A stretch of 64,000 nt of DNA from Chitinophaga pinensis (GTDB lineage: Bacteria > Bacteroidota > Ignavibacteria > Kapaibacteriales > Kapaibacteriaceae), in the NCBI GenBank assembly GCA_943372295.1, contig CALRYC010000001.1, positions 3,577-67,576 on the forward strand, read 5' to 3'. A model generated the notes under the pieces. That model was not told the origin of the DNA. It saw only the letters and a list, made by a program, of their open reading frames with translations, and made no database searches. Within the stretch, counting starts at the first letter, position 1; each line of letters begins with the position of its first letter. Shown here one piece after another: positions 28,628-45,606 of this stretch. The position numbers and the translations under genes are program-made.

Positions 28628-31600
28628 ATGAAACTCCTCAAGAACCAAGGTACTGAACGAGTCATAGACGAGCTGCGAAACAGCATTTCTGAGGGAGGCG
28701 GCTTTGACGTTGCAACCCCAATGCTCTCAATCTTCGCCTATGGGGAGTTGAGAGACACGCTTCGCAAGCTGGCGACAGGAAGGCTGCTGCTGCCGTTCGG
28801 GGACAAAGCCCCACTCGCCCTCCTTGGTTCGGATGCCGACCGTAGCTATCGCAACCAGCTCAAAACGCGAAAACTTGCCCAACACCTGCGGGATTGGCTG
28901 AACAAGTCCGTGGAGGTAAAGGGGGCCAGCGCCCCTATTCCGCAATCAACGCTCGTGGTCAACGATGCGGAGGGCAACCCAGTGAAAGTAATCGCTGGAA
29001 ACTGCCCTTTGAGCACTGACGGGCTGGGCATCACTCCAGCAAATCAGTTCAGTCTGGTTCAGGCGACTGAATCACCCGAAGAGTCGCAAGGTCTGGCTGC
29101 ATGGTTCACGCAGATGTGGGGAGCGCTCCCCGCTTCAGCGGATGGCAAAGCGGCCCTGCTGGCGCAATTGGACGAACTGACGGCCAAGCGCGAGCCTTCA
29201 CTTATCTATGCACTCACGCTTTACCACCTGTTCAAAGACAGGGGTGACGAGTTGGACGAAGAAAAGGTGGTAAAGTCCGCGACAGGTATTCGCGAGACTG
29301 TTGTCTGGAAGAAGCTATTCAAGTTTCAGCGCGATGGAGTTGTCGGTGCCATCGACAAGCTGGAGCGGCTCGGCGGGTGCATCATCGCTGATAGTGTGGG
29401 CCTCGGTAAAACATTCGAAGCGCTCGCCATCATCAAATATTACGAGCTCCGCAATGACCGAGTTCTGGTGCTCGCTCCAAAGCGCCTGCGTGATAACTGG
29501 ACGCTCTACAAGGCCAACGACCGCCGCAACGTGCTGGCGAAAGACCGCCTAAATTACGACGTGCTCAATCATACAGACTTGTCACGTGATGACGGCAAGT
29601 CAGGCGACATTGAGTTATCGCACGTCAATTGGGGCAATTACGATCTGGTCGTCATCGACGAATCGCACAACTTTCGCAACAAGGCATCACGCAACGACCG
29701 CGAAACGCGATACAGCCGTCTCATGGAGAAGGTTATCAAGGAAGGTGTGAAAACGCGAGTCTTGATGCTTTCGGCAACGCCGGTGAATAACCGGCTCGCT
29801 GATTTGAAGAACCAAATCGCTTTTGTCACCGAGGGCGTTGATACAGCGCTCGTCGACCATGGCATCCCAAGCATTGAAGCGACCGTTCGCAAAGCGCAGC
29901 TTCAGTTCAACCGCTGGCTGGCGGCGGAGCCTGCTGAGCGCACGCCGCCTCATTTGATTGAGATGCTGGGGTTTGACTACTTCAAGTTGCTGGACCTGCT
30001 AACCATCGCCCGGTCTCGTCGGCACATTGAAAAATACTACGGCATCGCGGAAACCGGGAAGTTCCCGGAACGACTAAAGCCGATCAACTACAAGCCCGAT
30101 GTTGACCGTGCCGGACAGTTCCGCTCCATACGCGAAATCAACAATGAGATCCGCCGTCTCACTCTCGCTGCTTACGCGCCCCTGCGCTATGTGCTGCCAG
30201 CCAAACAGGCGGCCTATGATGCAAAATACAGCACGAAGATTCGCGGGGGCGAGAGCTTCTTCCGGCAGGTGGATCGTGAGGAAAGCCTTATTCACCTCAT
30301 TCGCGTGAACGTGCTCAAGCGCATGGAAAGCGCCGTGACCTCGTTCGCGCTCACGCTTCAGCGCCAGCTTGCCGATGTGGAGGCGACGTTGGCGAAAATC
30401 GAAGCCCATGAGGAATCCATAGAAGAAGTCGAGATTGAAGATCTCGACATTGACGATCCTGCCTACGAAAGTCTGCTCGTCGGGCGCAAGGTGAAGGTGC
30501 TCGTCAAGGATGTTGATCTGGTTCGCTGGAAACAGGATCTCATTGAAGATCGGAACCGTCTCGCCACGCTTTACTCGGCTGCTGACCAAATCGGCGTCGC
30601 ACGCGATGCAAAGCTCGAAAAGCTTCGTGAAGTCATCGCCGGAAAGGTCAAGAATCCGCTGAACCCTGGTAACAAGAAGGTGATCGTCTTCACGGCTTTC
30701 GCTGACACTGCCAAGTATCTCTATGAGCAGCTTGGCGGCTGGGCGCAGTTGGAACTTGGCGTTCACTCCGCGCTGGTCACGGGCGGAGGGCACAATCAGG
30801 CCACGCTACCGAATCTGCGCAAAGACCTGTCCAGCATCCTCACGGCGTTCTCGCCGCGCTCCAAAGAGCGTCCAGCAGAACTCGCCGGTGAAGGTGACAT
30901 TGATATTCTGATTGCCACTGACTGCATCAGCGAAGGTCAGAACCTTCAGGACTGCGATTACCTCATCAACTACGACATCCACTGGAACCCAGTTCGCATC
31001 ATTCAGCGCTTCGGGCGAGTAGACCGTATCGGCTCGCCAAATAGCCGCATACAGCTCGTGAACTTCTGGCCGAACATCGAGCTGGAGGAATACATTAATC
31101 TGGAGCAGCGCGTTTCTGGCCGCATGGTGCTGCTTGACATCTCCGCCACTGGCGAGGAAAACATTATCGAGCAGCAGTCGGGCAACCAGATGAACGATCT
31201 CGAATACCGCCGTACGCAGCTTCTCAAGCTGCAAGATGCGGTGATTGACCTTGAAGACCTATCCAGCGGCGTTTCCATCGCCGACCTCACGCTCACGGAT
31301 TTCCGCATCGACCTTGCTGAGTTCCTGCGAAACCACGCGGGCAAACTAGAAACGATGCCACTGGGCACTTTTGCGGTCACTACCTCGCCGGAAGCCGCAA
31401 TTCCTCCTGGAATCGTGTTCTGTCTGCGTGCCGAAGGTGAAGCCGCAGAGAAGTCCTTTGAGCCTGGTTATCCGCTGGCTCCGCATTATCTGGTTCACGT
31501 TGGCGATGATGGCAGTGTTCTCCTGCCATTCACTCAGGCAAAGGCAGCCCTCGACCTCTTGAAGCGCGTTTGCATCGGGCGTGATCTGCCCGACGCGGAA

Positions 31601-31828
31601 GCCTGCGACCGCTTCGACAAAGCCACCAAAGGCGGCGAAGACATGAGCCAACCGGGCAAGCTGCTGTCGGCGGCCGTATCGAGCGTCATCGGCAAGAAGG
31701 AAGAGCGGGCCGTTGCCAGCCTCTTCACTCCAGGTGGCACTCATGCCATCAAGGGAGAGTTCGCCGGCATCAACGACTTTGAGGTCATCGCTTACCTTGT
31801 CATTCTTCCCGGAGAGAATGCAGCATGA
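28628..31828 (+). CDS. SNF2-family ATPase/helicase with a ~220-aa N-terminal extension
   Basis: FQRDGV...IIADSVGLGKTFEALAII (I), DLVVIDESHNFRNK (II), VLMLSATPVNNRLADL (III), ATDCISEGQNLQDCDYLINYDIHWNPVRIIQRFGRVDRIGS (V/VI). Confidence 0.9.
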   Translation: MKLLKNQGTERVIDELRNSISEGGGFDVATPMLSIFAYGELRDTLRKLATGRLLLPFGDKAPLALLGSDADRSYRNQLKTRKLAQHLRDWLNKSVEVKGASAPIPQSTLVVNDAEGNPVKVIAGNCPLSTDGLGITPANQFSLVQATESPEESQGLAAWFTQMWGALPASADGKAALLAQLDELTAKREPSLIYALTLYHLFKDRGDELDEEKVVKSATGIRETVVWKKLFKFQRDGVVGAIDKLERLGGCIIADSVGLGKTFEALAIIKYYELRNDRVLVLAPKRLRDNWTLYKANDRRNVLAKDRLNYDVLNHTDLSRDDGKSGDIELSHVNWGNYDLVVIDESHNFRNKASRNDRETRYSRLMEKVIKEGVKTRVLMLSATPVNNRLADLKNQIAFVTEGVDTALVDHGIPSIEATVRKAQLQFNRWLAAEPAERTPPHLIEMLGFDYFKLLDLLTIARSRRHIEKYYGIAETGKFPERLKPINYKPDVDRAGQFRSIREINNEIRRLTLAAYAPLRYVLPAKQAAYDAKYSTKIRGGESFFRQVDREESLIHLIRVNVLKRMESAVTSFALTLQRQLADVEATLAKIEAHEESIEEVEIEDLDIDDPAYESLLVGRKVKVLVKDVDLVRWKQDLIEDRNRLATLYSAADQIGVARDAKLEKLREVIAGKVKNPLNPGNKKVIVFTAFADTAKYLYEQLGGWAQLELGVHSALVTGGGHNQATLPNLRKDLSSILTAFSPRSKERPAELAGEGDIDILIATDCISEGQNLQDCDYLINYDIHWNPVRIIQRFGRVDRIGSPNSRIQLVNFWPNIELEEYINLEQRVSGRMVLLDISATGEENIIEQQSGNQMNDLEYRRTQLLKLQDAVIDLEDLSSGVSIADLTLTDFRIDLAEFLRNHAGKLETMPLGTFAVTTSPEAAIPPGIVFCLRAEGEAAEKSFEPGYPLAPHYLVHVGDDGSVLLPFTQAKAALDLLKRVCIGRDLPDAEACDRFDKATKGGEDMSQPGKLLSAAVSSVIGKKEERAVASLFTPGGTHAIKGEFAGINDFEVIAYLVILPGENAA

Positions 31829-32577
31829 GCGCTGCTTCCGTCATTGCGGCACTTGGAATCCCTGCTGATGCGAGGGTAGATCAGCGCATTGCCAAGAAGC
31901 TCCTCGTGGAGAACGGCGCACCCACTGCTGCCGACAAGCGGAAGATCAACGACGGCATCGAAGACTTGATTTGGGTTGCTGCGTTGAAGCCCGACAACAT
32001 TGGGGTGCCTGCCTACAAAGACGATTCGAGGGAATACCTAGAAATCGCCGTGCTGCACGTGAACTTCAGGCCGGAGGCCAAAGCAGCGAGGCTGAAGGAA
32101 CTCATTCACCGCGCCATCCCGTACCCCGTTTTTCTGATAGTTTCGCAGGCTGCATATAGTGAGCATTCACTGGCGCATCTGCGCTGGTCGCAGGGGCAAG
32201 CCGGGCAAACAGTTTTGGACGGCTCTGTCATCAGCGCAAGCCTGAGTGAAGGCAGCGCCGTCACAGCGGCCTTCCTGGCTGCGCTCAACTTGACAGCCCA
32301 GCCCCGGCAAAATCTTCACGCCCTTTATCAAGGGTGGATTGAGACCTTTGAGGCCTATGCCGCCGCGCAGCATACCGGTAACTTCGTTCCCGCCACCGAT
32401 GCATCCACCGCAGAGCGTCGCCGTGTGGCTCTGGCAGAGCATGAGCGCCTCACCCGCGATATGGCGGCGCTTCGCGCTCGTGCCGCCAAGGAAAAGCAAC
32501 TTAATCGTCGCGTGGAGATCAATCTTCAGCTTCAACACCTTGAGTCGCGCCTCTCGGAGGCTCGCAACTACCTCTAA
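31825..32577 (+). CDS. DUF4391-like protein
   Basis: 250 aa. The start overlaps the SNF2 stop by 4 bp. The pattern RIAKKLLVENGAPTAADKRKINDGIEDLIWVAALKPDNIGVPAY...YLEIAVLHVNF...LIHRAIPYPVFLIV matches my recollection of DUF4391, which typically sits between SNF2 helicase and methylase genes. Confidence 0.6.
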   Translation: MSAASVIAALGIPADARVDQRIAKKLLVENGAPTAADKRKINDGIEDLIWVAALKPDNIGVPAYKDDSREYLEIAVLHVNFRPEAKAARLKELIHRAIPYPVFLIVSQAAYSEHSLAHLRWSQGQAGQTVLDGSVISASLSEGSAVTAAFLAALNLTAQPRQNLHALYQGWIETFEAYAAAQHTGNFVPATDASTAERRRVALAEHERLTRDMAALRARAAKEKQLNRRVEINLQLQHLESRLSEARNYL

Positions 32578-32590
32578 ACAGGACTCCAAC

Positions 32591-34471
32591 ATGCAGAATA
32601 TCACAGCCGAATCCCCCGAATCAAAGACCCCCGACTTAGCTGCCGAAAATCTTGCCCAGCTCAAGACGCTCTTTCCCGAATTGGTGACGGAGAGTAAGGA
32701 TGGCATCGTGGTGAATGTGGATGTGCTCAAGCAGCTCGTGGGCGACAAGGTCATCACCGACAGCGAGGAGAAGTACGGACTCAACTGGTATGGCAAACGC
32801 CGCGCTCGGCAGATCGCCCTGACACCCAGTACCGGTATACTGCGCCCCTGCCCAGAGGACAGCGTAGACTGGGACACAACTCAGAATCTCATGATCGAGG
32901 GCGACAACCTCGAAGTCCTAAAGCTCCTCCAGAAATCCTACGCCGGGAAGGTGAAGCTCATCTACATTGACCCGCCCTACAACACCGGCAAAGACTTCGT
33001 TTATCCAGACAACTTCCAGGATAACATCAAAAATTACTTGGAACTCACTGGTCAGGCCAGCGAAGGAGGCCGCAAACTCTCGTCCAATACTGAAGCCTCC
33101 GGCCGCTTTCACACCGACTGGCTAAATATGATATATCCGCGCATCAAGCTGGCACGGAATCTACTACGGGAGGATGGGGTGATATTCATCAGCATCGATG
33201 ATAACGAAGTCGATGACCTTCGGAAAGTATGTGACGAAGTTTTTGGGGAGGAAAACCGCATTGGCATAATTTGTCATAAGGCTCGGGCCTCTGTCTCGAA
33301 CGACAAGATAATCTCGTCCAATCATAACTTTGTTATGCTTTACGCAAAAAACGGGGCGCTCGTCTTTGAGAACCGTTCAAAGTTCGGTCTGCCTCCAGAA
33401 CTGGATGGTTTCGACAAGAAGGACCAAAAGGGCGAGTTCAAGCATGTCCCGGTTGACGGCCCAGGCGGCGCTGCCAAAGGGAATCCATATTACACGTTTC
33501 TTGGTGTGACTGGCTATTGGCGCTTTTCCGAGGAGCAGATGAAAAGGATGCATGAAGACGGGTTAATCGAAAAGGTTGGAGGCGGTCTTCAACAGAAATA
33601 TTATCTCGAAGACGCGAAGCAGTCGCGGAAGACAGATACGACTTGGTGGGATGATAAACTTTACACATCCACTGCATCTTCAAGGCTTAAAGAGCTAATG
33701 GGAGGCGAGGCTTTTGATAATCCAAAACCCATTGAGTTAGTGCAACGCATGCTTGAACTATGGGTGCGGTCTGAGGCGGATATTGTCTTAGATTTTTTTG
33801 GAGGCTCCGGAACGACTGCCCATGCTACGTTTGCGCAGACTGCAAAAGATGGAGTCACGCGGCGATTCATTTTAGTGCAACTGCCAGAGCCCCTCGATCC
33901 TGAAAACAAGGAACAAAAAACAGCAGCGGCGTTCTGTGACAAGCTTGGCATGCCCCGCAACATCGCCGAATTGACTAAAGAGCGCCTGCGTAGGGCCGGA
34001 CAGAAAATCCGCGCGGAGAACCCACTTTTCGCCGGCGATCTCGGCTTCCGCGTCTTCAAGCTCGATTCCACAAACATCCGCGAATGGGACCCGAAACGCG
34101 ACAATCTCGCCGAAACTCTCGAAGCCTCCATTGAGCACCTCAAGATCGACCGTACCGAGCAGGACATCCTCTTTGAACTGCTCCTCAAACTCGGCCTAGA
34201 TCTATGCGTGCCCATTGAGCCGAAAAAAATCGCCGGATACGACGTTCACAGCATCGGCGGAGGCTCGCTCATCGTCTGCCTCTCAACCGCCATCCCGCGA
34301 GCCGACGTGGAGACACTCGCACTGGGCCTCGTGGCGTGGCACAAGGCATTGAAGCCTGCTGGAAAAACCACCGTCGTCTTCCGCGACAGTGCCTTCGCCA
34401 ACGACGTGGCCAAAACTAACCTCACCGCTATACTTCACCAGCATGGTCTCGAAACCGTGCGTAGCCTGTAA
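32591..34471 (+). CDS. mod: Type III-like (beta-class) N6-adenine DNA methyltransferase, Mod paralog 1
   Basis: Motif IV IYIDPPYNTGKDF precedes motif I VLDFFGGSGTTAHA. ATG at 32591 (MQNITAESPE); the track start 32339 lies inside the previous gene. Confidence 0.88.
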   Translation: MQNITAESPESKTPDLAAENLAQLKTLFPELVTESKDGIVVNVDVLKQLVGDKVITDSEEKYGLNWYGKRRARQIALTPSTGILRPCPEDSVDWDTTQNLMIEGDNLEVLKLLQKSYAGKVKLIYIDPPYNTGKDFVYPDNFQDNIKNYLELTGQASEGGRKLSSNTEASGRFHTDWLNMIYPRIKLARNLLREDGVIFISIDDNEVDDLRKVCDEVFGEENRIGIICHKARASVSNDKIISSNHNFVMLYAKNGALVFENRSKFGLPPELDGFDKKDQKGEFKHVPVDGPGGAAKGNPYYTFLGVTGYWRFSEEQMKRMHEDGLIEKVGGGLQQKYYLEDAKQSRKTDTTWWDDKLYTSTASSRLKELMGGEAFDNPKPIELVQRMLELWVRSEADIVLDFFGGSGTTAHATFAQTAKDGVTRRFILVQLPEPLDPENKEQKTAAAFCDKLGMPRNIAELTKERLRRAGQKIRAENPLFAGDLGFRVFKLDSTNIREWDPKRDNLAETLEASIEHLKIDRTEQDILFELLLKLGLDLCVPIEPKKIAGYDVHSIGGGSLIVCLSTAIPRADVETLALGLVAWHKALKPAGKTTVVFRDSAFANDVAKTNLTAILHQHGLETVRSL

Positions 34472-34480
34472 TCAATCGTT

Positions 34481-36394
34481 ATGAAGCCACTCACCATACA
34501 AGACCCTGAAACCAAATCTGCCGACGTGCTCGCAGAGAATATCGAACATTTGAGGACTCTTTTTCCAGAGGCGTGGACCGAAGGCAAAGTTGATTTCGAT
34601 GTCCTCAAGCAACTGCTTGGCGGTCTCGTGGATGAGCGCGAGGAGAAATATGGCCTAAATTGGCATGGCAAACGCCGCGCTCGCCAGATCGCCCTCACAC
34701 CCAGTGCTGGCACACTGCGCCCCTGCCCAGAGGACAGCGAAGACTGGGACAACACGCAGAACCTCATGATCGAAGGCGACAACCTGGAGGTGCTGAAGCT
34801 CCTGCAGAAGAGCTACGCCGGGAAGGTAAAGCTTATTTACATCGACCCGCCCTACAACACCGGCAAAGACTTCGTCTATCCCGACAACTTCCAGGACAAC
34901 ATCAAGAACTACCTCGAAGTCACCGGCCAGACCGGCGAGGGTGGTAAGAAACTCTCCTCCAACACCGAGGCCTCCGGCAGATTCCACACCGACTGGCTCA
35001 ACATGATGTATCCGCGAGTGAGGCTTGCGAAGACTCTATTGAGCAAAAACGGTCTGCTAATGATTTCGACCGATGAAACAGAAGCGGACAACCTCAGAAA
35101 GCTCTGCGATGAAGTGTTTGGTTCGGAAAACTTTGTGGAGCGAATCGTATGGAAAAACAAATATGGGTCCGGCGCATTAACAAAGGGCTTCGCCAATGTG
35201 CATGAATACATTCTCGTTTATTCACGAGAGCCTATTCAGGAAATTGCAGCCCCCCTCGATGATGAACAGCGATCCGCATTTAACCAAAAGGACGAAAAGT
35301 TCGTCAAGCGTGGCGGTTTTCTGACGCAGCCACTCGCGACGACTAGCAAAGATGACAGACCTAATTTGGTCTATCCGCTAATTCACGAAGGTCGTGAAAT
35401 TTGGCCCGACAAACAATGGATTTGGGCTAAAGACCGGCTCGAAGAAGCTTATCGAAACAATGAATTAGTAATTAACGAATCAGGTGGGAAATTCAGTGTC
35501 CGGGCGAAGCAATACCTTCGCGACAAAAACGGAATCGAACGTTTAGGGAAACCACTTTCATTGATGAACGGTCCGTTTAATCAAGAAGGCACAAAAGACA
35601 TTGCATCACTTTTCCCAGAAAAGGTATTCACTTTCCCGAAGCCGATAGCACTTCTCAAATATTTCGTGTCGTTTGTTGTGAACGGTGACAAAACAGGTGA
35701 GGGGATTTACTTGGATTTCTTTGCTGGATCAGGCTCTTTCGCCCACGCAATTTATAGCCAGAATTCTTTGGATGGCGGGAAACGCAAATTCATCGTGGTT
35801 CAGCTACCAGAGCCGCTTGATAAGGAAAGTAATGAACAAAAAATTGCAGCAACATTCTGCGACAAGCTCGGCAAGCCCCGCACTATCGCAGAACTGACTA
35901 AAGAACGCCTGCGACTGGCAGGAAAAAAGATTCGTGAAGAGAACCCGTTGTTCACGGGTGACCTGGGCTTCCGTGTCTTCAAGTTGGACTCAACCAACAT
36001 TCGCGAGTGGGACCCAAACCGCGACAACCTCGCCGAAACCCTCGAAGCCTCAATTGAGCACCTCAAATCTGACCGCACCGAGCAGGACATCCTCTTCGAA
36101 CTTCTCCTCAAGCTAGGCCTGGATCTTTGCGTACCCATTGAGACAAAAAAAATCGCTGGGCACGACGTTCACAGTATTGGCGGCGGCTCGCTTATCGTCT
36201 GCCTCTCAACCGCCATCGCGCAAGCCGACGTGGAGACACTGGCACTTGGACTCGTGGCGTGGCACAAGGATTTGAAGCCTGCTGGAGAAACCACCGTCGT
36301 CTTCCGCGACACTGCCTTCGCCAACGACGTGGCCAAAACTAATCTCACCGCCATCCTCCACCAGCACGGTATCGAAACCGTGCGTAGCCTGTAA
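34481..36394 (+). CDS. mod: Type III-like (beta-class) N6-adenine DNA methyltransferase, Mod paralog 2 with a different central region
   Basis: IYIDPPYNTGKDF and YLDFFAGSGSFAHA. The N-terminal ~210 aa and C-terminal ~190 aa are near-identical to paralog 1, and the middle ~190 aa are unrelated. Confidence 0.88.
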   Translation: MKPLTIQDPETKSADVLAENIEHLRTLFPEAWTEGKVDFDVLKQLLGGLVDEREEKYGLNWHGKRRARQIALTPSAGTLRPCPEDSEDWDNTQNLMIEGDNLEVLKLLQKSYAGKVKLIYIDPPYNTGKDFVYPDNFQDNIKNYLEVTGQTGEGGKKLSSNTEASGRFHTDWLNMMYPRVRLAKTLLSKNGLLMISTDETEADNLRKLCDEVFGSENFVERIVWKNKYGSGALTKGFANVHEYILVYSREPIQEIAAPLDDEQRSAFNQKDEKFVKRGGFLTQPLATTSKDDRPNLVYPLIHEGREIWPDKQWIWAKDRLEEAYRNNELVINESGGKFSVRAKQYLRDKNGIERLGKPLSLMNGPFNQEGTKDIASLFPEKVFTFPKPIALLKYFVSFVVNGDKTGEGIYLDFFAGSGSFAHAIYSQNSLDGGKRKFIVVQLPEPLDKESNEQKIAATFCDKLGKPRTIAELTKERLRLAGKKIREENPLFTGDLGFRVFKLDSTNIREWDPNRDNLAETLEASIEHLKSDRTEQDILFELLLKLGLDLCVPIETKKIAGHDVHSIGGGSLIVCLSTAIAQADVETLALGLVAWHKDLKPAGETTVVFRDTAFANDVAKTNLTAILHQHGIETVRSL

Positions 36395-36403
36395 TCGATC
36401 GAT

Positions 36404-39400
36404 ATGAAACTCCATTTCGAACCGAACCTAGATTACCAAGCTCAGGCTATTGATGCGGTCTGCGACCTCTTTAATGGACAAGAGATCTGCCGGACAGAGT
36501 TCACGGTCACTCGTGATGCGAATGACATTCAGGGACGAATGGCTTTTGCCGAGAACGACCTCGGTATTGGGAACCGCCTGACGTTGCTCGATGACGAGAT
36601 TCTCGCCAACCTGAACGCTATCCAGCTCAGACATGGCCTAGCTCCATCGACTTCGCTTGTGTCGGGTGATTTCACGGTAGAGATGGAGACAGGCACCGGG
36701 AAGACCTATGTGTACCTGCGCACGATTTTTGAGCTGAACAAGCGATATGGCTTCACGAAGTTCATCATCGTAGTTCCCTCTGTTGCAATCAAAGAGGGCG
36801 TCTATCACACGATTGAAACAGCCAAAGAGCACCTGCAGGGACTTTATTCAGGAGTGCCTTTCGATTTCTTCCTCTATGACTCCGCCAAGCTCGGACAGGT
36901 GCGCAACTTTGCCACTAGCCCGCAGATTCAAATAATGGTAATGACCGTGGGTGCCATCAATAAGTTCGGTGACGAACAAGCGGCGGCCTCCGAGGAAGCC
37001 AACGATGTGTCACGCCGCGAGAAGTCCAAGAATGTCATGTATCGTGCCAGCGAGAAGACGGGCGGCGAGAAGCCGATTGATCTCATTCGTGCCACGCGCC
37101 CCATCATCATCGTTGACGAACCACAGAGTGTTGAAGGCGGTCTGGACGGCAAGGGCAAGAAGGCCATGGAGCGGATGAACCCACTATGCAGCCTGCGCTA
37201 TTCGGCCACTCCGAAGCATTCGCAACACATGGTCTTCAAGCTGGATGCTGTCGATGCCTACGAGCGCAAGCTCGTGAAGCAGATCGAAGTGGCTGCTGCC
37301 ACTGTCGAGGGCGGTTTCAACAAGCCTTATGTCCGACTTGTCTCGGTCAGTAACAAGCGCAATGTCATCACTGCTAAGGTCGAACTGGACATGCAGATAG
37401 CAACAGGTGTGAAACGCCAAGTTGTCGATGTCCAAGACGGCGAGAACCTCGAGATGACAACTGAGCGTGCAGTCTATGGAGACTTCCGCATTGGGGAAAT
37501 CCGCGTGGTCAAGGGTGACGAGTTCCTCGAACTGCGTTTCCCCGGTGGCGAGCAATACCTGAGGCTGAAGGAAGCTCATGGCGATGTTGAGCCACTGACA
37601 GTGCAGCGCCAGATGATCGCTCGGACCATCAAAGAGCATTTTGAGAAAGAAAAGCGCCTCGTGCCACAGGGCATCAAGGTTTTGAGTCTGTTCTTCATTG
37701 ATGCCGTTGAGAAATACCGGCAGTACGACGCCGAGGGCAATCCTGTGAAGGGCGACTACGCCCGCATCTTTGAGGAGGAGTATCGTCGGCTTGCCAAGCA
37801 TCCCGATTACCAGACGCTTTTCAAAGAAGTGGATGTGACCATTGCCGCCGAAGAGGTCCACAACGGCTACTTCTCCATCGACAAGAAGAAGGTCGGCAAC
37901 AAAACCGTCGAGGTCTTCAAAGACACCAGCGGCTCCACAAAAGCCGATGACGACACCTACAATCTCATCATGCGCAAGAAGGAGGAGCTTCTTAGCATGA
38001 GCACGCCTTTGAAGTTCATCTTCTCTCACTCGGCGCTGCGCGAGGGCTGGGACAACCCGAACGTCTTCCAAATCTGCGCCCTTCGCGAGATGGCAACAGA
38101 ACAACAGCGCAGGCAGACCATTGGTCGTGGCCTGCGCCTCTGTGTCAGGGCTGAAGGCAATGACTTCGTGCGCGTACGTGGGTTTGAGACGAACACGCTC
38201 ACCGTGATCGCGACAGAGAGCTATGAGCAGTTCGCCGAACGTCTTCAGAAGGAAATCGAGGACGAAACGGGGATTCGCTTTGGGATCGTGGAAACGCATC
38301 AGTTCGCTGGAATACCAGTTACGGGTACAGATGGTAAATCCACCCCGCTCGGGCTCGAGAAGTCGAAAGCTCTTTGGGAGTATCTTAGAACCACCGGACT
38401 GTTAGATTCCAAAGGGAAGGTTCAGGATACCCTACGTAAGGCACTCAAAGATGGCACACTCACGCTACCGGAGCCGTTGGCCGCACAACTGCCACAGGTG
38501 AAGGAGATTCTGCGTAAACTGGCCGGACGTCTAGAGATCAAGAATGCCGATGAACGGGTCGTGGTGAAGACACGGCAAGCGGTGCTGCAAAGCGCAGAGT
38601 TCAAGGCGCTGTGGGACCGTATCAAGCACAAGACAACGTATCGCGTGCAGTTTGACAATGAGGGACTGTTGGCCGCGTGCATTCATTCCCTCAAAGAAGC
38701 TCCGCCGATTACCCGAACACGCCTACAATGGCGCATGGCCGATCTTTCGATTGGCCGCGCAGGTGTTGAGGCGATAGAAACTTCCACTTCGGCTCATGTA
38801 ACGCTCGACGAGGGAGACATCGAGCTTCCCGACATTCTGACGGACCTCCAGGACCGCACCCATCTGACCCGTCGGAGCATTTGTCGTGTTCTGGTTGAAA
38901 GTGGTCGTCTCGACGACTTCAAACGTAATCCGCAGCAGTTCATCGAACGGACAGCGGAGGTCATCAATAGGGCGAAGCGAATGGCACTGGTGGACGGCAT
39001 CCGTTATCAGCGTATCGGCGCTGAAGAATACTATGTGCAGGAGCTCTTCGAGACAAAGGAATTTTCAGGCTATCTGAAGTCGATGGTTGCAGCTGAAAAG
39101 AGCGTTCACGAGCATGTAATCTACCAGTCAGACACTGAGAGGACTTTTGCTGAGCAGCTAGAAAAGAACGAAGCCATCAAGGTGTACGCCAAGTTGCCAT
39201 CATGGTTTCAAGTTCCCACCCCGCTTGGCCCCTACAATCCCGATTGGGCAGTGCTCGTGAGCAAGGACGGCAAGGAGCAGCTTTACTTTCTGGTCGAAAC
39301 GAAGAGCAGCCTCTATGCCGATGACCTGCGCGACAAGGAAAGCGCCAAGATTAAATGCGGTCAAGCGCATTTTGCAGAACTTGCTACTCACAACAGCTCT

Positions 39401-39451
39401 GCGGCTCGCTTTGTGAAGGCGACGAAGTTGGATGATGTGCTAGAGCTCTGA
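36404..39451 (+). CDS. res: Type III restriction enzyme Res subunit (SF2 helicase + C-terminal PD-(D/E)xK nuclease)
   Basis: MKLHFEPNLDYQAQAID..., EMETGTGKTYVY (Walker A), IIIVDEPQS, HSALREGWDNPNVFQIC, C-terminal YNPDWAVLV...LYFLVETKSS. Confidence 0.9.
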   Translation: MKLHFEPNLDYQAQAIDAVCDLFNGQEICRTEFTVTRDANDIQGRMAFAENDLGIGNRLTLLDDEILANLNAIQLRHGLAPSTSLVSGDFTVEMETGTGKTYVYLRTIFELNKRYGFTKFIIVVPSVAIKEGVYHTIETAKEHLQGLYSGVPFDFFLYDSAKLGQVRNFATSPQIQIMVMTVGAINKFGDEQAAASEEANDVSRREKSKNVMYRASEKTGGEKPIDLIRATRPIIIVDEPQSVEGGLDGKGKKAMERMNPLCSLRYSATPKHSQHMVFKLDAVDAYERKLVKQIEVAAATVEGGFNKPYVRLVSVSNKRNVITAKVELDMQIATGVKRQVVDVQDGENLEMTTERAVYGDFRIGEIRVVKGDEFLELRFPGGEQYLRLKEAHGDVEPLTVQRQMIARTIKEHFEKEKRLVPQGIKVLSLFFIDAVEKYRQYDAEGNPVKGDYARIFEEEYRRLAKHPDYQTLFKEVDVTIAAEEVHNGYFSIDKKKVGNKTVEVFKDTSGSTKADDDTYNLIMRKKEELLSMSTPLKFIFSHSALREGWDNPNVFQICALREMATEQQRRQTIGRGLRLCVRAEGNDFVRVRGFETNTLTVIATESYEQFAERLQKEIEDETGIRFGIVETHQFAGIPVTGTDGKSTPLGLEKSKALWEYLRTTGLLDSKGKVQDTLRKALKDGTLTLPEPLAAQLPQVKEILRKLAGRLEIKNADERVVVKTRQAVLQSAEFKALWDRIKHKTTYRVQFDNEGLLAACIHSLKEAPPITRTRLQWRMADLSIGRAGVEAIETSTSAHVTLDEGDIELPDILTDLQDRTHLTRRSICRVLVESGRLDDFKRNPQQFIERTAEVINRAKRMALVDGIRYQRIGAEEYYVQELFETKEFSGYLKSMVAAEKSVHEHVIYQSDTERTFAEQLEKNEAIKVYAKLPSWFQVPTPLGPYNPDWAVLVSKDGKEQLYFLVETKSSLYADDLRDKESAKIKCGQAHFAELATHNSSAARFVKATKLDDVLEL

Positions 39452-40020
39452 GATCTGACACGGCTCGCCTCCACAGGGCTTACGAAGCCCAATGCAGTTG
39501 GCATTTGCAACAATCTTGTACATGCCAGCTCTCAGCTGAACCCTGGGCATGCGATTCTCAAACGATCTTCAATATCTACTAATTGCTGTATTGACACTTT
39601 CTTACCGGCCTCACAGATGCGCACCACTCAACGGAAGACTGGGTTGAACTATTTTTTCATCCCAGTGCACACAGTTGTTTGTAGTATCATGGGGGACGAC
39701 CTCTGCCATGCCCTGGCGGGTGCAAGTGATTAGTACGTGGAAGGTTTTGTAGTGGGAGGCCTTGCGCTCTGCCTGCTGGCAGCGCTGGGCGCGCTTTCAT
39801 AAGCACGGAAGGATTCACAAGGCAGTAACAACTTGGCTAAGTGCAGGTCTATAGCTTTATCATTTTGGAACTTATTCGCACTTTCGTAACGGTCAGCATG
39901 GGAACGAGTCGTTCCGACGCAGCTGGGTGCGACATCTACACAGTGAATACGATTGTGTCGAACTTGTGCTGTCGGGTGATTAAAACAATAAGTCATTAAT
40001 TTAAGCGGGGTTGCTTTTTC

Positions 40021-40794
40021 ATGATGACGTCAGATACTCTTGCAAAATATTTTCATGGCCGTTATATGGAACGGCTTGAGCGTGAGTTGGACCTTAATTG
40101 GAAGCGTCTGAATATTGGTTTGATTGCCCTGATCGCATCGATCGCCGGATACGGTGCCGTAATCAAGGAACAAGTTCATGTCTCGCAGGGCAACGGGGAT
40201 CAGTTTCTTTTGTTTGCTGCTAGGACTTGTTCATTCGAGGTCAGTGTGCTTTACACCTTGGCGGGGCTTGCCGTGATATTTCTCGTCGTCTACATGTTGA
40301 TTCTCGTCAATCAGGGCCGGCATTGGTATCGCGTAAATGAAGCGAAGGTATCATGGTTCGAGAACATCATGCTGTTCCCAGAGTCGGTAGGTAGCAAGAT
40401 TGACTCCCCCTCAGTTTCATCAATTTATCAGATTGGAATTGGAACCTCTGGCAAGGTAAGCGTTAATCGTGGAATCAAGATCCCACTTTATAGCACGGGA
40501 GCTGTGTTCAGCGTTCTCAGCGCGCTAAATCTGTTGAACGTGTTGCTGACTCTGGGGAGTTTTTCGGCTGACTATCCTCTAGCGCCAACGGCATTCCTTT
40601 TGTCCATCCTTATTTTCATCGGGATCATCACCATGGACTGGATGTCGCGCGGAACAATAGATCTGACCGATTTCAATAAACTGCGTCCCGTTGACAACTG
40701 TACTCAGCGCGATGTTTCGAGTTTGATTCGTCAGCTTGACTTTCAGATGAATGAGCATGGTGAATCCCGAGTTGATCAGCGTGATGGTGATTGA
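40021..40794 (+). CDS. Hypothetical multi-pass membrane protein
   Basis: About 4 hydrophobic helices (LNIGLIALIASIAGYGAVI, VLYTLAGLAVIFLVVYMLILV, AVFSVLSALNLLNVLLTLG, AFLLSILIFIGIITM). Low-GC region. No recognisable motif. Confidence 0.4.
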   Translation: MMTSDTLAKYFHGRYMERLERELDLNWKRLNIGLIALIASIAGYGAVIKEQVHVSQGNGDQFLLFAARTCSFEVSVLYTLAGLAVIFLVVYMLILVNQGRHWYRVNEAKVSWFENIMLFPESVGSKIDSPSVSSIYQIGIGTSGKVSVNRGIKIPLYSTGAVFSVLSALNLLNVLLTLGSFSADYPLAPTAFLLSILIFIGIITMDWMSRGTIDLTDFNKLRPVDNCTQRDVSSLIRQLDFQMNEHGESRVDQRDGD

Positions 40795-40979
40795 TTGGGA
40801 GCCTTAAGAAAGACCCATGAGTTCCTGTCAATCCTGCGCAACTAATTCCAACGTTGCTTGAGGAACATCGCGGTAACTACGAGATGATGCAGTGCGGCGC
40901 AGCCAGCAAGGTCCGTACTCGTTGCCTTTGTTCGTAAATGAAAGTTCACGAGCGTCCGAACATTTAACCCCTATACTGC

Positions 40980-41582
40980 ATGACCCTCACCCCACGCTTC
41001 GAACACGCGCTCGTATACACGGCGCAGGCCCATAACGGGCAACTCCGCAAGGGAACACAGATCCCGTATCTCTCACATCTGTTATCGGTGGCCAGCATAG
41101 CCCTCGAGTATGGAGCGAATGAGGATGAGGCCATTGGGGCTCTTCTTCATGACGCGGGCGAGGATTCTGGTGGCGATGAGCGTATCCTGGACATCCGAAA
41201 TGTGTTCGGTGATGCCGTCGCTGATATTGTCCAGGGTTGTACTGATGCAGTGGTCTTACCAAAGCCACCATGGCAGGAGCGCAAAGAGAAATACATTGCC
41301 GGCGTGCCGCACGAGCCAGTATCAATTCGCTTCATTTCAGCTGCAGACAAGCTACATAACGTGCGATCGATCATCCGTGACTACCGCGCTCTCGGTGATG
41401 GACTGTGGCCCCGCTTCAAAGGTGGTAAGGACGGGAGCCTCTGGTACTATCGCGCGCTGGTGGATGCGTATCGACAAGGAACGAACTACGATGATTCCGC
41501 ACAGGCAGCCTCCCATACGGAACTCATCGATGAGCTGGACCGGGCTGTGACAGAGTTAGAGGTGATGGTGGGGAAGGGATGA
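40980..41582 (+). CDS. Small alarmone hydrolase-like HD-domain protein (stand-alone SpoT/Mesh1-type hydrolase domain)
   Basis: FEHALVYTAQAHNGQLRKGTQIPYLSHLLSVASIALEYG...AIGALLHDAGEDSGG...FGDAVADIVQGCTD...SAADKLHNVRS parallels the HD region of the RelA/SpoT gene at the start of this window. Confidence 0.7.
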   Translation: MTLTPRFEHALVYTAQAHNGQLRKGTQIPYLSHLLSVASIALEYGANEDEAIGALLHDAGEDSGGDERILDIRNVFGDAVADIVQGCTDAVVLPKPPWQERKEKYIAGVPHEPVSIRFISAADKLHNVRSIIRDYRALGDGLWPRFKGGKDGSLWYYRALVDAYRQGTNYDDSAQAASHTELIDELDRAVTELEVMVGKG

Positions 41583-42349
41583 GTGCGACAAACCCAAAGG
41601 GCAAAGTTCAGACACTACTGGGTAGCCGCCGTCTCAACGTTATGAATGCTAGGGTGAAGCGAATTGCCGCAAAAGCGGCTGTTCAGGTCCTTCTTGGGTT
41701 TGCGATAGCGTCATTGCTCTTCACAGCCCCTTGGTGGCTGCTTTCCTTAGGATTGTTCGATGGCATGAAGCCAAATGAAGTTGGGGACTATCTCGGCGGA
41801 ATTGCCGGTTTTGTGTCATCAACGATCACCGTTGTTCTTCTTTACTTCGTCTGGAGCTCCGAAAGGAAGGATGATCGCAAAGCAACCTTCATGACAAGCT
41901 TGATGGTGTTGCTAGAGATCCACGTTGAAGAAAGAGAACGATTGCTGGCCAAGAAATCAGACGATAGCTATTTCAAGTGGTTCTGGACCAACCATATCCA
42001 TCACTTGCTGATATGTACCGATATCGTAGCTCGAAAAAAAGAGGCAGAGAAGATCTACAGTGAGCAGTACAATCACGTTGCGAGCTGGTTCCTTTCAGTT
42101 CTGCGAGTCATCCGGTTCATCGAAGATTCTGACCAGCCAGAGAGCGACAAGCATGAGGCTATGAAGCTTTTCAGGCTATTCTGTGAGCGTGAAGAGCAGC
42201 GTGCACTGTTTCTGTTGCTTTTTACGAAAGATTCCACTGCCGAGAGTCCGATACTTCTGTTGAAGCATAGCTTTTTCGAGCATGCTGGCTTCAAAGAAGA
42301 CCCAAAGCTCAGCGCCCTCTGGGAGCAGAGGTTGGAAGGGTGGAGTTAG
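41579..42349 (+). CDS. Membrane protein resembling the putative abortive-infection AbiC family (putAbiC)
   Basis: The start overlaps the HD-gene stop (ATGA). Two N-terminal TM helices flank NEVGDYLGGIAGFVSS (GDxxGG motif as recalled for putAbiC), followed by a helical cytoplasmic domain. Confidence 0.5.
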   Translation: MSATNPKGKVQTLLGSRRLNVMNARVKRIAAKAAVQVLLGFAIASLLFTAPWWLLSLGLFDGMKPNEVGDYLGGIAGFVSSTITVVLLYFVWSSERKDDRKATFMTSLMVLLEIHVEERERLLAKKSDDSYFKWFWTNHIHHLLICTDIVARKKEAEKIYSEQYNHVASWFLSVLRVIRFIEDSDQPESDKHEAMKLFRLFCEREEQRALFLLLFTKDSTAESPILLLKHSFFEHAGFKEDPKLSALWEQRLEGWS

Positions 42350-42450
42350 TAAGTACGACTTTGCCGAGCGTGCATAATGCCGCGGATACTCGACACGGAA
42401 TCCGACGCTAGTTGGCCACGAATTGCGAGTAATCTTACCGAAGGAGTGGT

Positions 42451-42511
42451 CAGTATGCTCCGGAATGGGGGCAGAATGCTCCGCCACGGGGGCAGTATCC
42501 GGGGGGGGGGG
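42451..42511. repeat. Three degenerate 21-bp tandem units ending in a G11 homopolymer (42501-42511)
   Basis: cagtatgctccggaatggggg / cagaatgctccgccacggggg / cagtatccggggggggggg. Confidence 0.85.
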
Positions 42512-42537: not shown

Positions 42538-42909
42538 CTAGAAATGTAGGGGATCTACGTTTAGGCTCGAGTTCGACGCGGATATAGGACAATCGAACCG
42601 TTTGCTAATTTCTATGACTAGCTCCCTGAACCAGGTGGGGGCGAGTGGGGATACGACAACCATATGTATGATCCCAGCTAGGTCAACAGGCACACTTATT
42701 CCCGTGGGTCGTTCATCTGAGTAAATACGGAGGATTGCGCGCACCTCCTTTTCATGCTCGAACGCAGCTCGCTTCCGGAATGGCGCGTCCTGATGATGCA
42801 AAATCACATCTTCGTAATCGATGTATTGAACCCTGCCTATCTCAATCTCGTAACGATCGCCTTCTACGTGTGATCTTCTCCCGTTTTCGTTGTCAGGAAG
42901 AGTGTCGTG
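42538..42909 (-). pseudogene. C-terminal fragment of a DUF2971-like protein (no N-terminus, no ATG)
   Basis: The frame is open from the stop at 42910-42912 and reads ...GRVQYIDYEDVILHHQDAPFRKRAAFEHEKEVRAILRIY.... FxxExExR is the DUF2971 C-terminal pattern as I recall it. The track ORF starts at a GTG at 42807. Confidence 0.4.
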
Positions 42910-43250: not shown

Positions 43251-44576
43251 ATGAACGAAATAGTCTGTCCACACTGCCATAAGGCCTTCAAGATCGACGA
43301 AGCAGGATATGCGGAGATCGTCAAGCAGGTTCACGACCACGAGTTTGAGAGTCAGCTCCGCGAGCGTCTTGAGCTTGCCGAGAGGGACAAAGACAACGCC
43401 ATTAAGCTCGCGCAGGCGAACGCTGAGAGGCTTCTCTCCGAGAAAATGTCGAGCAAGGAGCAGGAGATTGAAAGGTTACGGGGCCGACTGGATGTGGCCG
43501 AGACAGAGCGACAGCTTGCCTTGACACAGGCGACGAGGGACCTTGAGGCCGAGCGGGATAGGCTGAAGAACGACCTCGAACGCATGAAGGACGATGTGAC
43601 CAGCAAGTTCGCCCTTGCCGAGTCGCGTTTCCAGAACGAACTCCAGCAGGCCGTTGGACAGCGGGAACAGAAGATCCAGGAGCTCACCAGCGCCATTGAT
43701 CATGTGAAGCATGAAAGGGAGTCCTCTGAGAGAAACCTCAGGGAGAACTACGAGCAGCAGATCAGAGACAGAAACGATGAGATCCAGCGAATCCGAGATA
43801 TGAAAGCGAAGCTCTCCACGAAGATGGTGGGAGAGACGCTTGAGCAGCATTGTGAGATCGAGTTCAATCGCATACGGGCAACGGCCTTCCCTCTGGCCTA
43901 CTTCGAGAAGGACAATGATTCTAGGTCAGGAAGTAAAGGAGATTACATCTTCCGCGACATGGATGAGGCCGGTACGGAGATTGTCTCTATCATGTTCGAG
44001 ATGAAGAACGAGTCCGACCTCACGGCTACAAAAAAGAGGAATGAGGACTTCCTGAAGGAACTTGATAAGGATCGTTCCGAGAAGAAGTGCGAGTATGCTG
44101 TGCTTGTATCCCTGCTCGAAGCGGATAACGAGCTCTACAACACCGGGATTGTGGACGTCTCATATCGGTATCCGAAGATGTACGTCGTGCGGCCACAGTT
44201 CTTCATACCGATCATCACGCTTCTGCGCAATGCCGCACTGAACTCCCTCAAGTACAAGTCTGAACTGGCACTCGTAAAGGCACAGAACATCGACATCACC
44301 AGGTTTGAGCAAGACCTTGATGATTTCAAGGACGCCTTCAGCAAGAACTACGATCTTGCTTCACGTCGGTTTAAGACGGCCATCGAGGAGATCGACAAGT
44401 CGATCGATCACTTGCAGAAGACAAAGGAGGCCTTGCTGGGAACCGACAGGAATCTCAGGCTCGCCAATGACAAGGTACAGGATGTTACCATCAAGAAGCT
44501 GACGAGGGGAAATCCGACCATGGCCGCCAAGTTTGCCGAGCTGAAGGGTCCCAAGAGTGGGGACGTGGACAAGTAA
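43251..44576 (+). CDS. DUF2130-like protein: N-terminal zinc ribbon, long coiled coil, C-terminal PD-(D/E)xK-like domain
   Basis: [27 protein letters not shown], about 170 aa of heptad-like E/R/L-rich sequence, then [10 protein letters not shown]...[11 protein letters not shown] (D...ExK). Confidence 0.65.
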
Positions 44577-44634
44577 ACGTCGCGAGAACCCCCAAGGGGC
44601 TTCTTGGTTTCCCCGTTCTGTAGTAAAATTGAGC

Positions 44635-45606
44635 ATGTCGCAGCAGATACATCGTGTTACGAGAATCCTAAGTCGTCTCTCAGCTGGAAATGTGTGTACG
44701 GCGGAGCAGCTATGGGAGTATGTGACGAAGTACAACCAGGATGCGAAGATTGTCACCAAGCGTCAGATCGAGAGGGATATCAAGGCGATCATCGAATCGG
44801 GTGTGCCCCTTAAAGTTAACCGCCGTGATCGGACCGTGTACTATTCTATCCCCAAGGGATCAGTTTTCAATGTTGGTGCAACGGTCAACAGCAGTCAGCC
44901 ATTTCTGCTGTACATGATCAAGGCGGCTCTGCCTATGCTGCGTGAGGAATCTCTTCAGGCAGCGGTTGAGGAGTTGATGGAAGAGATTGAGCAGCATGCG
45001 CCTGGTCAGGTTGTTCTTTCCGACACGATGCTGGAGTCGATCGGTCTTGGCCACTACTCAGGCGAGATAGATCACAGGGCGCTATCGGATGTCATGAACT
45101 ATATCGCTCAAAAGCGCTGGATTCGTGTCATCTACGGTGAGCAGTCCAAGAGTCAGCTGCTCTTTCCGTTCAAGATCATCCCGTATCTCGGCAGGCTGTA
45201 CCTGGCGGTATGGCATGGGAAGCACGACAGCTATGGCGTATACGCCGTCGACAAGATCAAAATGGTGTATCAGGCCCCCTCGCCTCAGCCACCCATCCCC
45301 AAGTTCGATCTGAAGAAGTTCATGTCCACGCGCTTTGGCTTGTGGGAGGATCCGCAGCGCCGCGAGAGTGACATTGAGATACACATGACCAATCCCAAGA
45401 TCGCTGATTTTTTCAGATCCAGCTACTGGCACGTATCGCAGAAGATCATCACGAATGATGACGGTACGCTAACGATAAAGATGAAAGCCGGGTTGAGCCC
45501 GGAACTTGTCTCTTGGGTGCTCCACTGGGCGCCGGACCTTCTTGTCGTCCGCCCACAGGAGCTCCGCGATGAGGTGCGCCGCCGTGCTGAACTTCTGCTG
45601 AGGTGA
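44635..45606 (+). CDS. WYL-domain transcriptional regulator (HTH-WYL-WCX architecture)
   Basis: N-terminal HRVTRILSRLSAGNVCTAEQLWEYV (wHTH). WYL-like IRVIYGEQ...FKIIPYLGRLYLAVWHGKHDSYGVYAVDKI. ATG at 44635 is preferred over 44557, which overlaps the previous gene. Confidence 0.7.
   Translation: MSQQIHRVTRILSRLSAGNVCTAEQLWEYVTKYNQDAKIVTKRQIERDIKAIIESGVPLKVNRRDRTVYYSIPKGSVFNVGATVNSSQPFLLYMIKAALPMLREESLQAAVEELMEEIEQHAPGQVVLSDTMLESIGLGHYSGEIDHRALSDVMNYIAQKRWIRVIYGEQSKSQLLFPFKIIPYLGRLYLAVWHGKHDSYGVYAVDKIKMVYQAPSPQPPIPKFDLKKFMSTRFGLWEDPQRRESDIEIHMTNPKIADFFRSSYWHVSQKIITNDDGTLTIKMKAGLSPELVSWVLHWAPDLLVVRPQELRDEVRRRAELLLR

Follow-up and report, generated by a model that had tools for sequence, protein, structure and literature searches.

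Small alarmone hydrolases (SAHs) are currently viewed as tuners of the stringent response, as antitoxins of toxic alarmone synthetases or as phage counter-defence genes. In toxSAS modules, they act as enzymatic antitoxins, as reported by Jimmy et al. (2020) and Kurata et al. (2021). In the PrrC–EcoprrI paradigm, an accessory abortive-infection gene accompanies a restriction–modification (R-M) operon and plausibly serves as a backup if restriction fails. SAH antitoxins of toxSAS modules have been described (PMC11245113), and RelH of Leptospira levettii (PDB entry 7QOE) is a catalytically active (p)ppGpp hydrolase that forms a dimer (PMC9293644). Lactococcal AbiC is a single-gene, two-transmembrane (two-TM) abortive-infection protein of unknown mechanism, which is grouped with the RNA-binding protein AbiP (PMC13064643); to state that a protein works like AbiC says little, as the mechanism of AbiC is itself unsolved. 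Here, three consecutive genes, A, B and C, are described from a 64,000-nucleotide stretch of contig CALRYC010000001.1 (the window). They encode a four-TM membrane protein, a predicted SAH and an AbiC-like membrane protein, respectively. A-B-C is best explained as a rare, compact accessory cassette that moves horizontally and has docked behind the 3′ end of a restriction operon. The cassette probably represents a new accessory module against phages, with a mechanism that can only be inferred.

The features of the window that are needed below are the following:

40021..40794, forward strand (+): gene A, four-TM membrane protein, remote relative of the 8xMP family and optional cassette member (open reading frame (ORF), TM prediction, Pfam).
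40980..41582, forward strand (+): gene B, RelH-type SAH, predicted to be catalytically intact (HD_4 match, PDB relatives, motifs).
41579..42349, forward strand (+): gene C, AbiC/P-like two-TM membrane protein, the start of which overlaps the stop of gene B (ORF, putAbiC match, topology).
39586..40020, forward strand (+): non-coding leader 5′ of gene A, probable promoter or operator region (nucleotide conservation).
42446..42510, forward strand (+): G-rich tandem repeat, possible cassette boundary or recombination site (Tandem Repeats Finder (TRF), pattern search).
34481..39451, forward strand (+): Type III R-M system, Mod at 34481–36394 and Res at 36404–39451, with the cassette docked at its 3′ end (PADLOC).

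Genes A, B and C encode proteins of 257, 200 and 256 amino acids (aa). A gap of 185 bp separates A from B, and B and C are coupled: the stop codon of B and the start codon of C share the sequence ATGA at 41579–41582 (...GGG AAG GGA TGA GTG..., read in the sequence). The original prediction for this locus, which was made from the letters of the window, had proposed these three ORFs, the gap and the overlap, and each was confirmed.

The pairing of B with C recurs well beyond the window. C homologues with 55–88% identity are found directly 3′ of an intact HD_4 gene at loci L001/L002, L003, L005–7 and L008. Counting L014–16, where C has decayed, B–C adjacency spans the window and five other metagenomic lineages. 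These lineages are so divergent that their synonymous sites are saturated, and all three genes are under purifying selection. The original prediction had named the absence of this gene pair elsewhere as its own refutation; the HD and AbiC-like genes proved to be neighbours in all five further lineages. The ATGA overlap itself is found in the window, L001, L003 and L008 and can be traced in the L014 pseudogene, with L005 carrying a 55-bp spacer instead. Wherever the contig is long enough to tell, C, intact or decayed, follows every B sequence that is at least 73% identical to that of the window. The full A-B-C arrangement is found in L001 and L005, and A-B in L102, where the contig ends after B. 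Gene A is optional: at L008 it is absent, and B-C directly follows the Type III Res gene. The downstream flanks vary by locus and hold an SLFN-like helicase, FRG or other genes. The cassette, with two or three genes, recurs in other freshwater bacteria.

The genes of the cassette have diverged to different extents. In a comparison of the window with L001, the synonymous divergence (dS) rises from 0.16 in B to 0.42 in A and 0.93 in C, while the Res proteins are 98% identical at the aa level. These differences indicate allelic replacement within the cassette, and such a mosaic is typical of a defence hotspot.

The link to restriction genes is also recurrent. The Mod and Res genes of the window match PADLOC models (MTase_III, E 1e-211; REase_III, E 0). 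The same Type III Res gene lies upstream of the cassette in the window, L001 and L102 (97–98% aa identity), and a Res gene that is 71% identical directly precedes B-C in L008. Type I HsdR precedes the cassette or parts of it in L009–12, L013 and L014–16. A Type I or Type III restriction gene is found before nearly every copy that has enough upstream sequence.

The relatives of B extend this link. In GTDB, 386 stretches encode B relatives, and the best 80 loci (55–68% identity) were examined: none of the 80 carries C or A, and same-strand R-M or GmrSD genes lie within 5 kb at eight of them, six of which belong to the ten relatives closest to B. The hydrolases paired with C form a monophyletic group in a neighbour-joining tree, and their sister clade is mostly R-M-linked and crosses phyla. 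Hydrolases of this sister clade are encoded on the same strand inside Type I R-M/GmrSD operons of Planctomycetota, Verrucomicrobiota and Flavobacteriales (L017–L026, L061, L087). Examples include the order HsdM-HsdS-HD-GmrSD-HsdR in a Pirellulaceae metagenome-assembled genome (MAG) and HsdS-168aa-HD-PD(D/E)XK-HsdR in a Flavobacteriales MAG. Cyanobacterial and Chthoniobacterales hydrolase clades occupy housekeeping contexts (ABC ATPase, PRPP synthetase or peptidase). The attachment of both the cassette and its parent hydrolase clade to R-M operons is the strongest contextual signal at the locus, and one that the original prediction overlooked. No published account of R-M-embedded alarmone hydrolases was found in the literature searched, nor was anything relevant on a link between SAHs and restriction, defence islands or abortive infection.

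A more distant relative was observed on the plasmid pSYSA_M of Synechocystis sp. PCC 6803 (L103, 70320–72370), where a RelH-type HD gene, 48% identical to B, lies 24 bp 3′ of a CRISPR-associated gene of the TIGR03985 family. pSYSA is a CRISPR-rich plasmid.

Gene B matches Pfam HD_4 with 74.3 bits (cutoff 27.2; E 1.1e-20), and a Pfam scan found no other domains. Its match to the RelA/SpoT model TIGR00691 is limited to the N-terminal positions 1–122 of 687, and B is for this reason a hydrolase domain without a synthetase. The best PDB relative of B is 7QOE (E 8.9e-46, ~55% identity over residues 4–165), followed by 7QOC/7QOD, Lmo0812 and Mesh1. The motifs QLRKG, PYLSHLL, LLHDAGED and DKLHN are present in B, invariant in five orthologues and aligned with the RelH active site. 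With a ratio of nonsynonymous to synonymous substitution (dN/dS) of 0.04–0.14, B is the most conserved component of the cassette. B is accordingly classed as a predicted single-domain RelH-type SAH. Because of its ~55% identity to the active RelH 7QOE, B is expected to have 3′-pyrophosphohydrolase activity on (p)ppGpp or (p)ppApp. The same identity, the invariant catalytic motifs and the low dN/dS clearly suggest that catalysis itself, and not merely a binding surface, is under selection. A phage origin of B was considered and rejected, the closest phage relatives being at most 37% identical.

Gene C is assigned to a rare, divergent but genuine subfamily of the putAbiC superfamily, because profile matches hold reciprocally. 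Five of the 13 members of the C subfamily match Pfam putAbiC (PF16872) at E<0.01. In the reverse direction, the next matches of a C-family profile beyond its own clade (E 2e-7 to 1e-3) are putAbiC proteins, and all ten of those tested score 22–88 bits. The family is small: an exhaustive profile search of 1.84 billion representatives returned only six clusters at E≤1e-30, and the next matches begin at about 1e-7. C also matches the putAbiC gene of L013 by BLASTP (E 5e-11).

Hydropathy places TM1 of C at about residues 29–57 and TM2 at 73–92. The N-terminal tail is strongly basic (eight K/R, no D/E), and a short acidic loop between the two TM segments carries the invariant motif NEVGDYLGG. Residues 93–256 are predicted, from hydropathy and AlphaFold2 (AF2) secondary structure, to form a cytoplasmic all-helical domain, the core of which is highly conserved (VASWFLSVLRV...KHEAMKLFRLFCEREEQRALFLLLF). 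The sequence GD[YF]xGG precedes TM2 in all five distant members of the C family (P0009–P0013) and in 14 of 25 more distant putAbiC proteins. The Pfam putAbiC model covers residues 165–236, within the cytoplasmic domain, and not the GDYLGG motif. Gene C has a dN/dS of 0.09–0.18. C is most likely a membrane-anchored effector or sensor of the abortive-infection type.

A pattern-based scan of GTDB representative genomes revealed no relative of C, and a scan of JGI metagenomes revealed one extra C locus, L097. C homologues are absent from IMG/VR, GenBank phages and PLSDB plasmids, which means that none of these collections places C on a phage or a plasmid. At L013, an island in a Bacteroidetes MAG that carries an 8xMP–C pair, a second and more typical putAbiC gene (162–938) adjoins an OLD-family nuclease/ATPase; two AbiC-like paralogues thus occur in one island.

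Gene A encodes four TM segments (residues 30–48, 76–94, 160–178 and 187–205), which appear as four long helices in an AF2 model with a mean predicted local distance difference test score (pLDDT) of 68.9. A appears to be only remotely related to Pfam 8xMP (PF24838), which it matches with 20.4 bits, below the cutoff of 30. Six of the seven A-family members match 8xMP at E<0.01, the best E being only 1.2e-5. An A profile matches the true 8xMP protein of L013, which adjoins a C homologue, at E 5.5e-10 in a small database, and the BLASTP similarity is confined to 29 N-terminal residues. Gene A is present in L001, L005 and L102 and has a dN/dS of 0.19–0.28. It also occurs with other partners: divergent A-like genes without B or C follow an OmpA-family (peptidoglycan-binding) protein in L098 (3–1527), and in L100 (159–4427) lie between a 475-aa protein (13-bp gap) and a 633-aa Band_7/SPFH protein. 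These contexts hint at a modular role for the 8xMP-like four-helix proteins, as membrane partners in several different systems. Nothing relevant on the 8xMP family was found in the literature searched.

The analyses of the three proteins bear out their earlier description as a stand-alone SpoT-type HD hydrolase without a synthetase, a two-TM putAbiC-like protein with GDYLGG as a family motif, and a four-TM protein. The putAbiC assignment, for which a hidden Markov model check had been called for, is marginal in the direct Pfam comparison (22.3 bits) and is borne out by the reciprocal profile matches. The expectation that no synthetase lies nearby also held: no RelA/SpoT synthetase domain is present in A, C or 18 neighbouring proteins scanned between 19.8 and 53 kb, and A, B and C have no match at E≤1 among the models of PADLOC-DB v2.0.0.

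It is proposed that the substrate of B would be a 3′-pyrophosphorylated nucleotide, (p)ppGpp or (p)ppApp, that the RSH enzymes of the host produce. B would thereby serve as an enzymatic brake or reset and determine how much of the nucleotide is needed before C (with A) damages the membrane or arrests growth. The system would be triggered only if alarmone levels surged on the scale of an infection or if B were lost, and the cassette would form a second line behind the restriction system with which it rides. A brake of this kind, acting on a host alarmone that licenses a membrane-acting C (with A), is the most economical mechanism and is put forward tentatively. Alarmone gating of C and A is a plausible hypothesis. 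On the whole, the data favour genes that are functionally linked in a mobile unit attached to restriction operons. C would be its autonomous core, to which B and A were added as accessories in one lineage, and the occurrence of C homologues on their own at four loci is consistent with this.

Several observations weigh against this proposal. The first group concerns C and A themselves. The score of C against Pfam putAbiC lies barely above the cutoff of 22 bits. The AF2 model of C has a pLDDT of 57.7 and no significant Foldseek match in the PDB (best E 1.8), and the same holds for the model of A (best E 0.27). Searches of PDB sequences with profiles of C, of A and of the true 8xMP protein found nothing.

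The second group concerns the bond between B and C. At L004, C is intact (69% identity), and tblastn found no trace of an HD gene on the 5.9-kb contig. P0011 (36% identity to C; L009–12) stands alone directly after a Type I HsdM-HsdS-GmrSD-HsdR operon. P0013 (34% identity to C; L013) follows Type I HsdR, a 154-aa gene and a true 8xMP gene, with no HD gene. L097 likewise has C only and no B; the C proteins of L009–12, L013 and L097 are 33–36% identical to that of the window. Conversely, C is pseudogenised in L014–16, where it is spread over three frames with in-frame stops, and the adjoining HD gene is intact and strongly constrained. As C without B and B without C both persist, the functional dependence between them could be loose or absent. 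The sample comprises about ten distinct C contexts, all metagenomic, and the window, L001 and L102 are syntenic and not independent. Finally, a host-encoded alarmone hydrolase within a defence module is counter-intuitive, given the general view that low (p)ppGpp favours phages.

The main rival explanation, which is unlikely but deserves the most weight among the alternatives, is that two or three autonomous passengers are stacked in one hotspot, their adjacency and overlap being products of co-transfer and operon compaction. B would then be self-sufficient, for example against (p)ppApp- or tRNA-pyrophosphorylating toxins or in tuning alarmone or NADPH pools, and C would be a self-sufficient single-gene AbiC-like defence. 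Such independence would account for intact C alone (L004, L009–12, L097) or with only an 8xMP protein (L013), for B alone in Type I R-M operons (L018, L022, L023, L026, L061, L087) and for intact B beside decayed C. It would also suit the B-type gene beside a CRISPR-associated gene on Synechocystis pSYSA, the occurrence of A-like genes with other partners, and the cassette mosaic in which dS differs by gene; orphan SAHs, moreover, have autonomous and promiscuous roles (PMC9765508). Co-transfer accounts less readily for a 4-bp ATGA overlap kept across lineages with saturated synonymous sites, or for a shared, conserved leader that travels with A-B-C. Nor would it predict that pairing is confined to one monophyletic subclade of B, all members of which have C or decayed C where downstream sequence exists. 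If the link is hotspot stacking only, the finding shrinks to two rare island passengers.

The original prediction had also suggested a toxin/antidote pair. In such an addiction module, the membrane toxin would be C, alone or together with A, and B would keep it neutralised at all times, by enzyme action or by binding. The benefit would be stabilisation of the island, with no role dedicated to phage defence. The small size, translational coupling and mobile context of the genes agree with this view, SAHs are known as enzymatic toxSAS antitoxins, and the intact B beside decayed C in L014–16 resembles an orphan antitoxin left after toxin loss. Intact C lacking an HD gene (L004, of the same subfamily at 69% identity on a 5.9-kb contig, and the more distant C genes of L009–12, L013 and L097) weakens the idea of a toxin that must be kept in check. 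C has no synthetase-like fold or motif with which to make a substrate for B, and the antidote-first gene order, very slow evolution of B and strong enzymatic constraint fit a metabolic enzyme better. An addiction module is, on balance, improbable. A modular restriction-linked defence cassette fits better than an obligate toxin/antidote pair, because its parts are separable and restriction genes precede nearly every copy.

Reversed roles are a still more doubtful possibility. Here, B would be the effector and, once activated, would deplete an essential 3′- or 2′-phosphorylated nucleotide such as NADPH or (p)ppGpp. Membrane sensing or anchoring would fall to C and A, which would keep B switched off as long as no infection perturbs the envelope. 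SAHs and Mesh1 can indeed hydrolyse NADPH (PMC9765508), B is the most conserved component, and B-only versions exist in R-M operons. RelH enzymes, however, are constitutively active dimers in vitro (PMC9293644), and the full length of B, including its C-terminal tail, aligns with hydrolases that lack a C partner, with no sign of a regulatory interface. The existence of the C family without B also speaks against such an arrangement. That B is simply a housekeeping stringent-response hydrolase with irrelevant neighbours is very improbable and already disfavoured: Cyanobacterial and Chthoniobacterales relatives do occupy housekeeping contexts, but B falls in a separate, R-M-linked clade that crosses phyla, its gene overlaps C within a low-GC defence island, and the two genes move together into different flanks.

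The cassette is accompanied by two non-coding elements that recur at other loci. The leader at 39586–40020 (~430 bp) has ~76% nucleotide identity to L005, the flanks of which are otherwise unrelated to those of the window. It is also conserved in L001 and partly in L102, on a par with the coding genes. It is probably a promoter or operator region. A small fourth gene within it was rejected, as similarity occurs in all six frames, third-position periodicity is absent and the indels are not multiples of three. A riboswitch or other structured RNA was rejected on present evidence, with no Rfam match at E≤1, a folding z-score of +0.67 relative to shuffled sequences and a covariation term of −0.38, values for which four sequences give little power.

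The G-rich repeat at 42446–42510 consists of three units of about GGGGG-CAGTAT-GCTCCGGAAT and, in the window, a final G11 run. Across loci, the unit reads GGGGG(T)CAGTAT(G/A)C(T/A)CCGGAAT with a period of 21–27 bp. TRF and a pattern search found it to be unique within the 64-kb window, where the chance expectation is 0. It lies 3′ of C in the window and in L001/L002 (L001 3168–3232). In L005 (560–705), it adjoins the 5′ side of the leader, and homology to the window starts at its end. Viral contigs held no exact match to the repeat. Its placement suggests that it may be a recombination site or boundary, or a phase-variable tract.

The surroundings of A-B-C agree with the earlier description of a low-GC patch in a defence island. 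GC content is 0.48–0.53 at 40–43 kb and ~0.57–0.60 in the window core, and Pfam and PADLOC scans of neighbouring proteins reveal a dense defence island. It includes GmrSD, an HsdR N-terminal fragment, an SNF2 helicase, DUF4391, a methyltransferase and, immediately upstream of the cassette, the Type III Mod/Res genes. Downstream lie a PDC-S31 remnant, DUF2130 and a WYL/WCX regulator. A protein with a type IX secretion system (T9SS) sorting domain is also encoded in the window and, together with relatives in Bacteroidota MAGs, points to a Bacteroidota-like host. The sequence was obtained from metagenomes of lake water.

Some of these neighbours have unusual structures of their own. The GmrSD type IV restriction enzyme (23062–25689) carries a C-terminal fusion to RAMA and DUF4268, and the DUF4268 part also matches the PDC-S11 and PDC-S14 models. 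Two tandem methyltransferases at 32339–36394, both full-length matches to PDLC03634 (Type III Mod; E 2e-218 and 1e-211), come after the SNF2 helicase (28628–31828) and DUF4391 (31825–32577) and before a single Res gene. SNF2, DUF4391, two methyltransferases and one Res make up an unusual composite R-M arrangement. On the reverse strand, an 89-aa ORF (42538–42807) matches only the C-terminal third of the PADLOC candidate PDC-S31 (E 2e-6). The window and L001 cease to be collinear at 42871, and the equivalent place in L001 is occupied by an intact gene of 332 aa (3260–4258, reverse strand); the 89-aa ORF for this reason resembles what truncation would leave of an adjacent candidate defence gene. 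Further downstream (43251–45606), a DUF2130 protein (zinc ribbon, coiled coil and DUF2130; E 3e-90) overlaps the start of the WYL/WCX regulator by 20 bp, and this pair may be another regulated unit of the defence island.

If the proposal is true, a hydrolase that travels with restriction genes and, with no synthetase nearby, is coupled to an AbiC-like protein would open a new connection between anti-phage immunity and the general alarmone pool of the host. The mechanistically opaque AbiC/AbiP family would gain its first candidate small-molecule input. The cassette also offers a defined case, open to testing, in which modular 'second-line' genes are appended to R-M systems. A broader and more speculative idea, which at present seems rather unlikely, is that alarmone hydrolysis forms a general, unrecognised layer in the biology of restriction and of defence islands. 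R-M operons of at least three phyla contain members of a mobile RelH clade, with a distant relative beside the pSYSA CRISPR-associated gene. In the cassette, such a hydrolase would be wired to AbiC-like and 8xMP-like proteins, with a host alarmone as the infection signal for a membrane abortive-infection effector and the hydrolase as the threshold brake.

Neither a hydrolase–AbiC system nor an R-M-embedded alarmone hydrolase has been described in PADLOC or in the literature searched, which likewise held nothing relevant on alarmone-controlled membrane effectors; the component families are known. Among them, the RelH enzymes (L. levettii 7QOE, Corynebacterium glutamicum 7QOC/7QOD, Lmo0812 and Mesh1) resemble B in consisting of a single HD_4 domain of ~200 aa. 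B shares all RelH active-site motifs, among them the positions (R, ED, N) that correspond to the sites of mutation in the RelH study. The role ascribed to the characterised RelH enzymes is that of stand-alone regulators of the stringent response, whereas B overlaps a membrane-protein gene and belongs to a mobile, R-M-linked clade.

AbiC/AbiP and putAbiC proteins share with C an N-terminal TM hairpin and a helical non-membrane domain with conserved cytoplasmic helices. The GDxxGG motif before TM2 is common to C and many putAbiC members, and related members are single genes in defence islands. C differs in its marginal score (22.3 bits), in having no PADLOC AbiC match and in forming a tiny separate subfamily; AbiC, unlike C, has no hydrolase partner. 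The 8xMP family (PF24838, 'octameric membrane protein family') shares with A an N-terminal ERLxxELxxxWxRxNI helix and the TM1–TM2 region. A true 8xMP gene directly precedes the C homologue in L013, whereas A itself falls below the 8xMP threshold (20.4 versus 30 bits).

The toxSAS SAHs (e.g. FaRel/ATfaRel) and CapRel-type defence likewise place a small alarmone hydrolase in a compact, mobile, defence-associated module. The toxic alarmone synthetase of toxSAS is missing from A, C and the flanking genes, and the partner here is instead a membrane protein. In PrrC–EcoprrI, too, accessory genes lie in or at the end of an R-M operon, as the B-only and C-only versions described here lie in or after Type I and Type III operons. 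The anticodon-nuclease and ATPase components of that system have no counterpart in the cassette.

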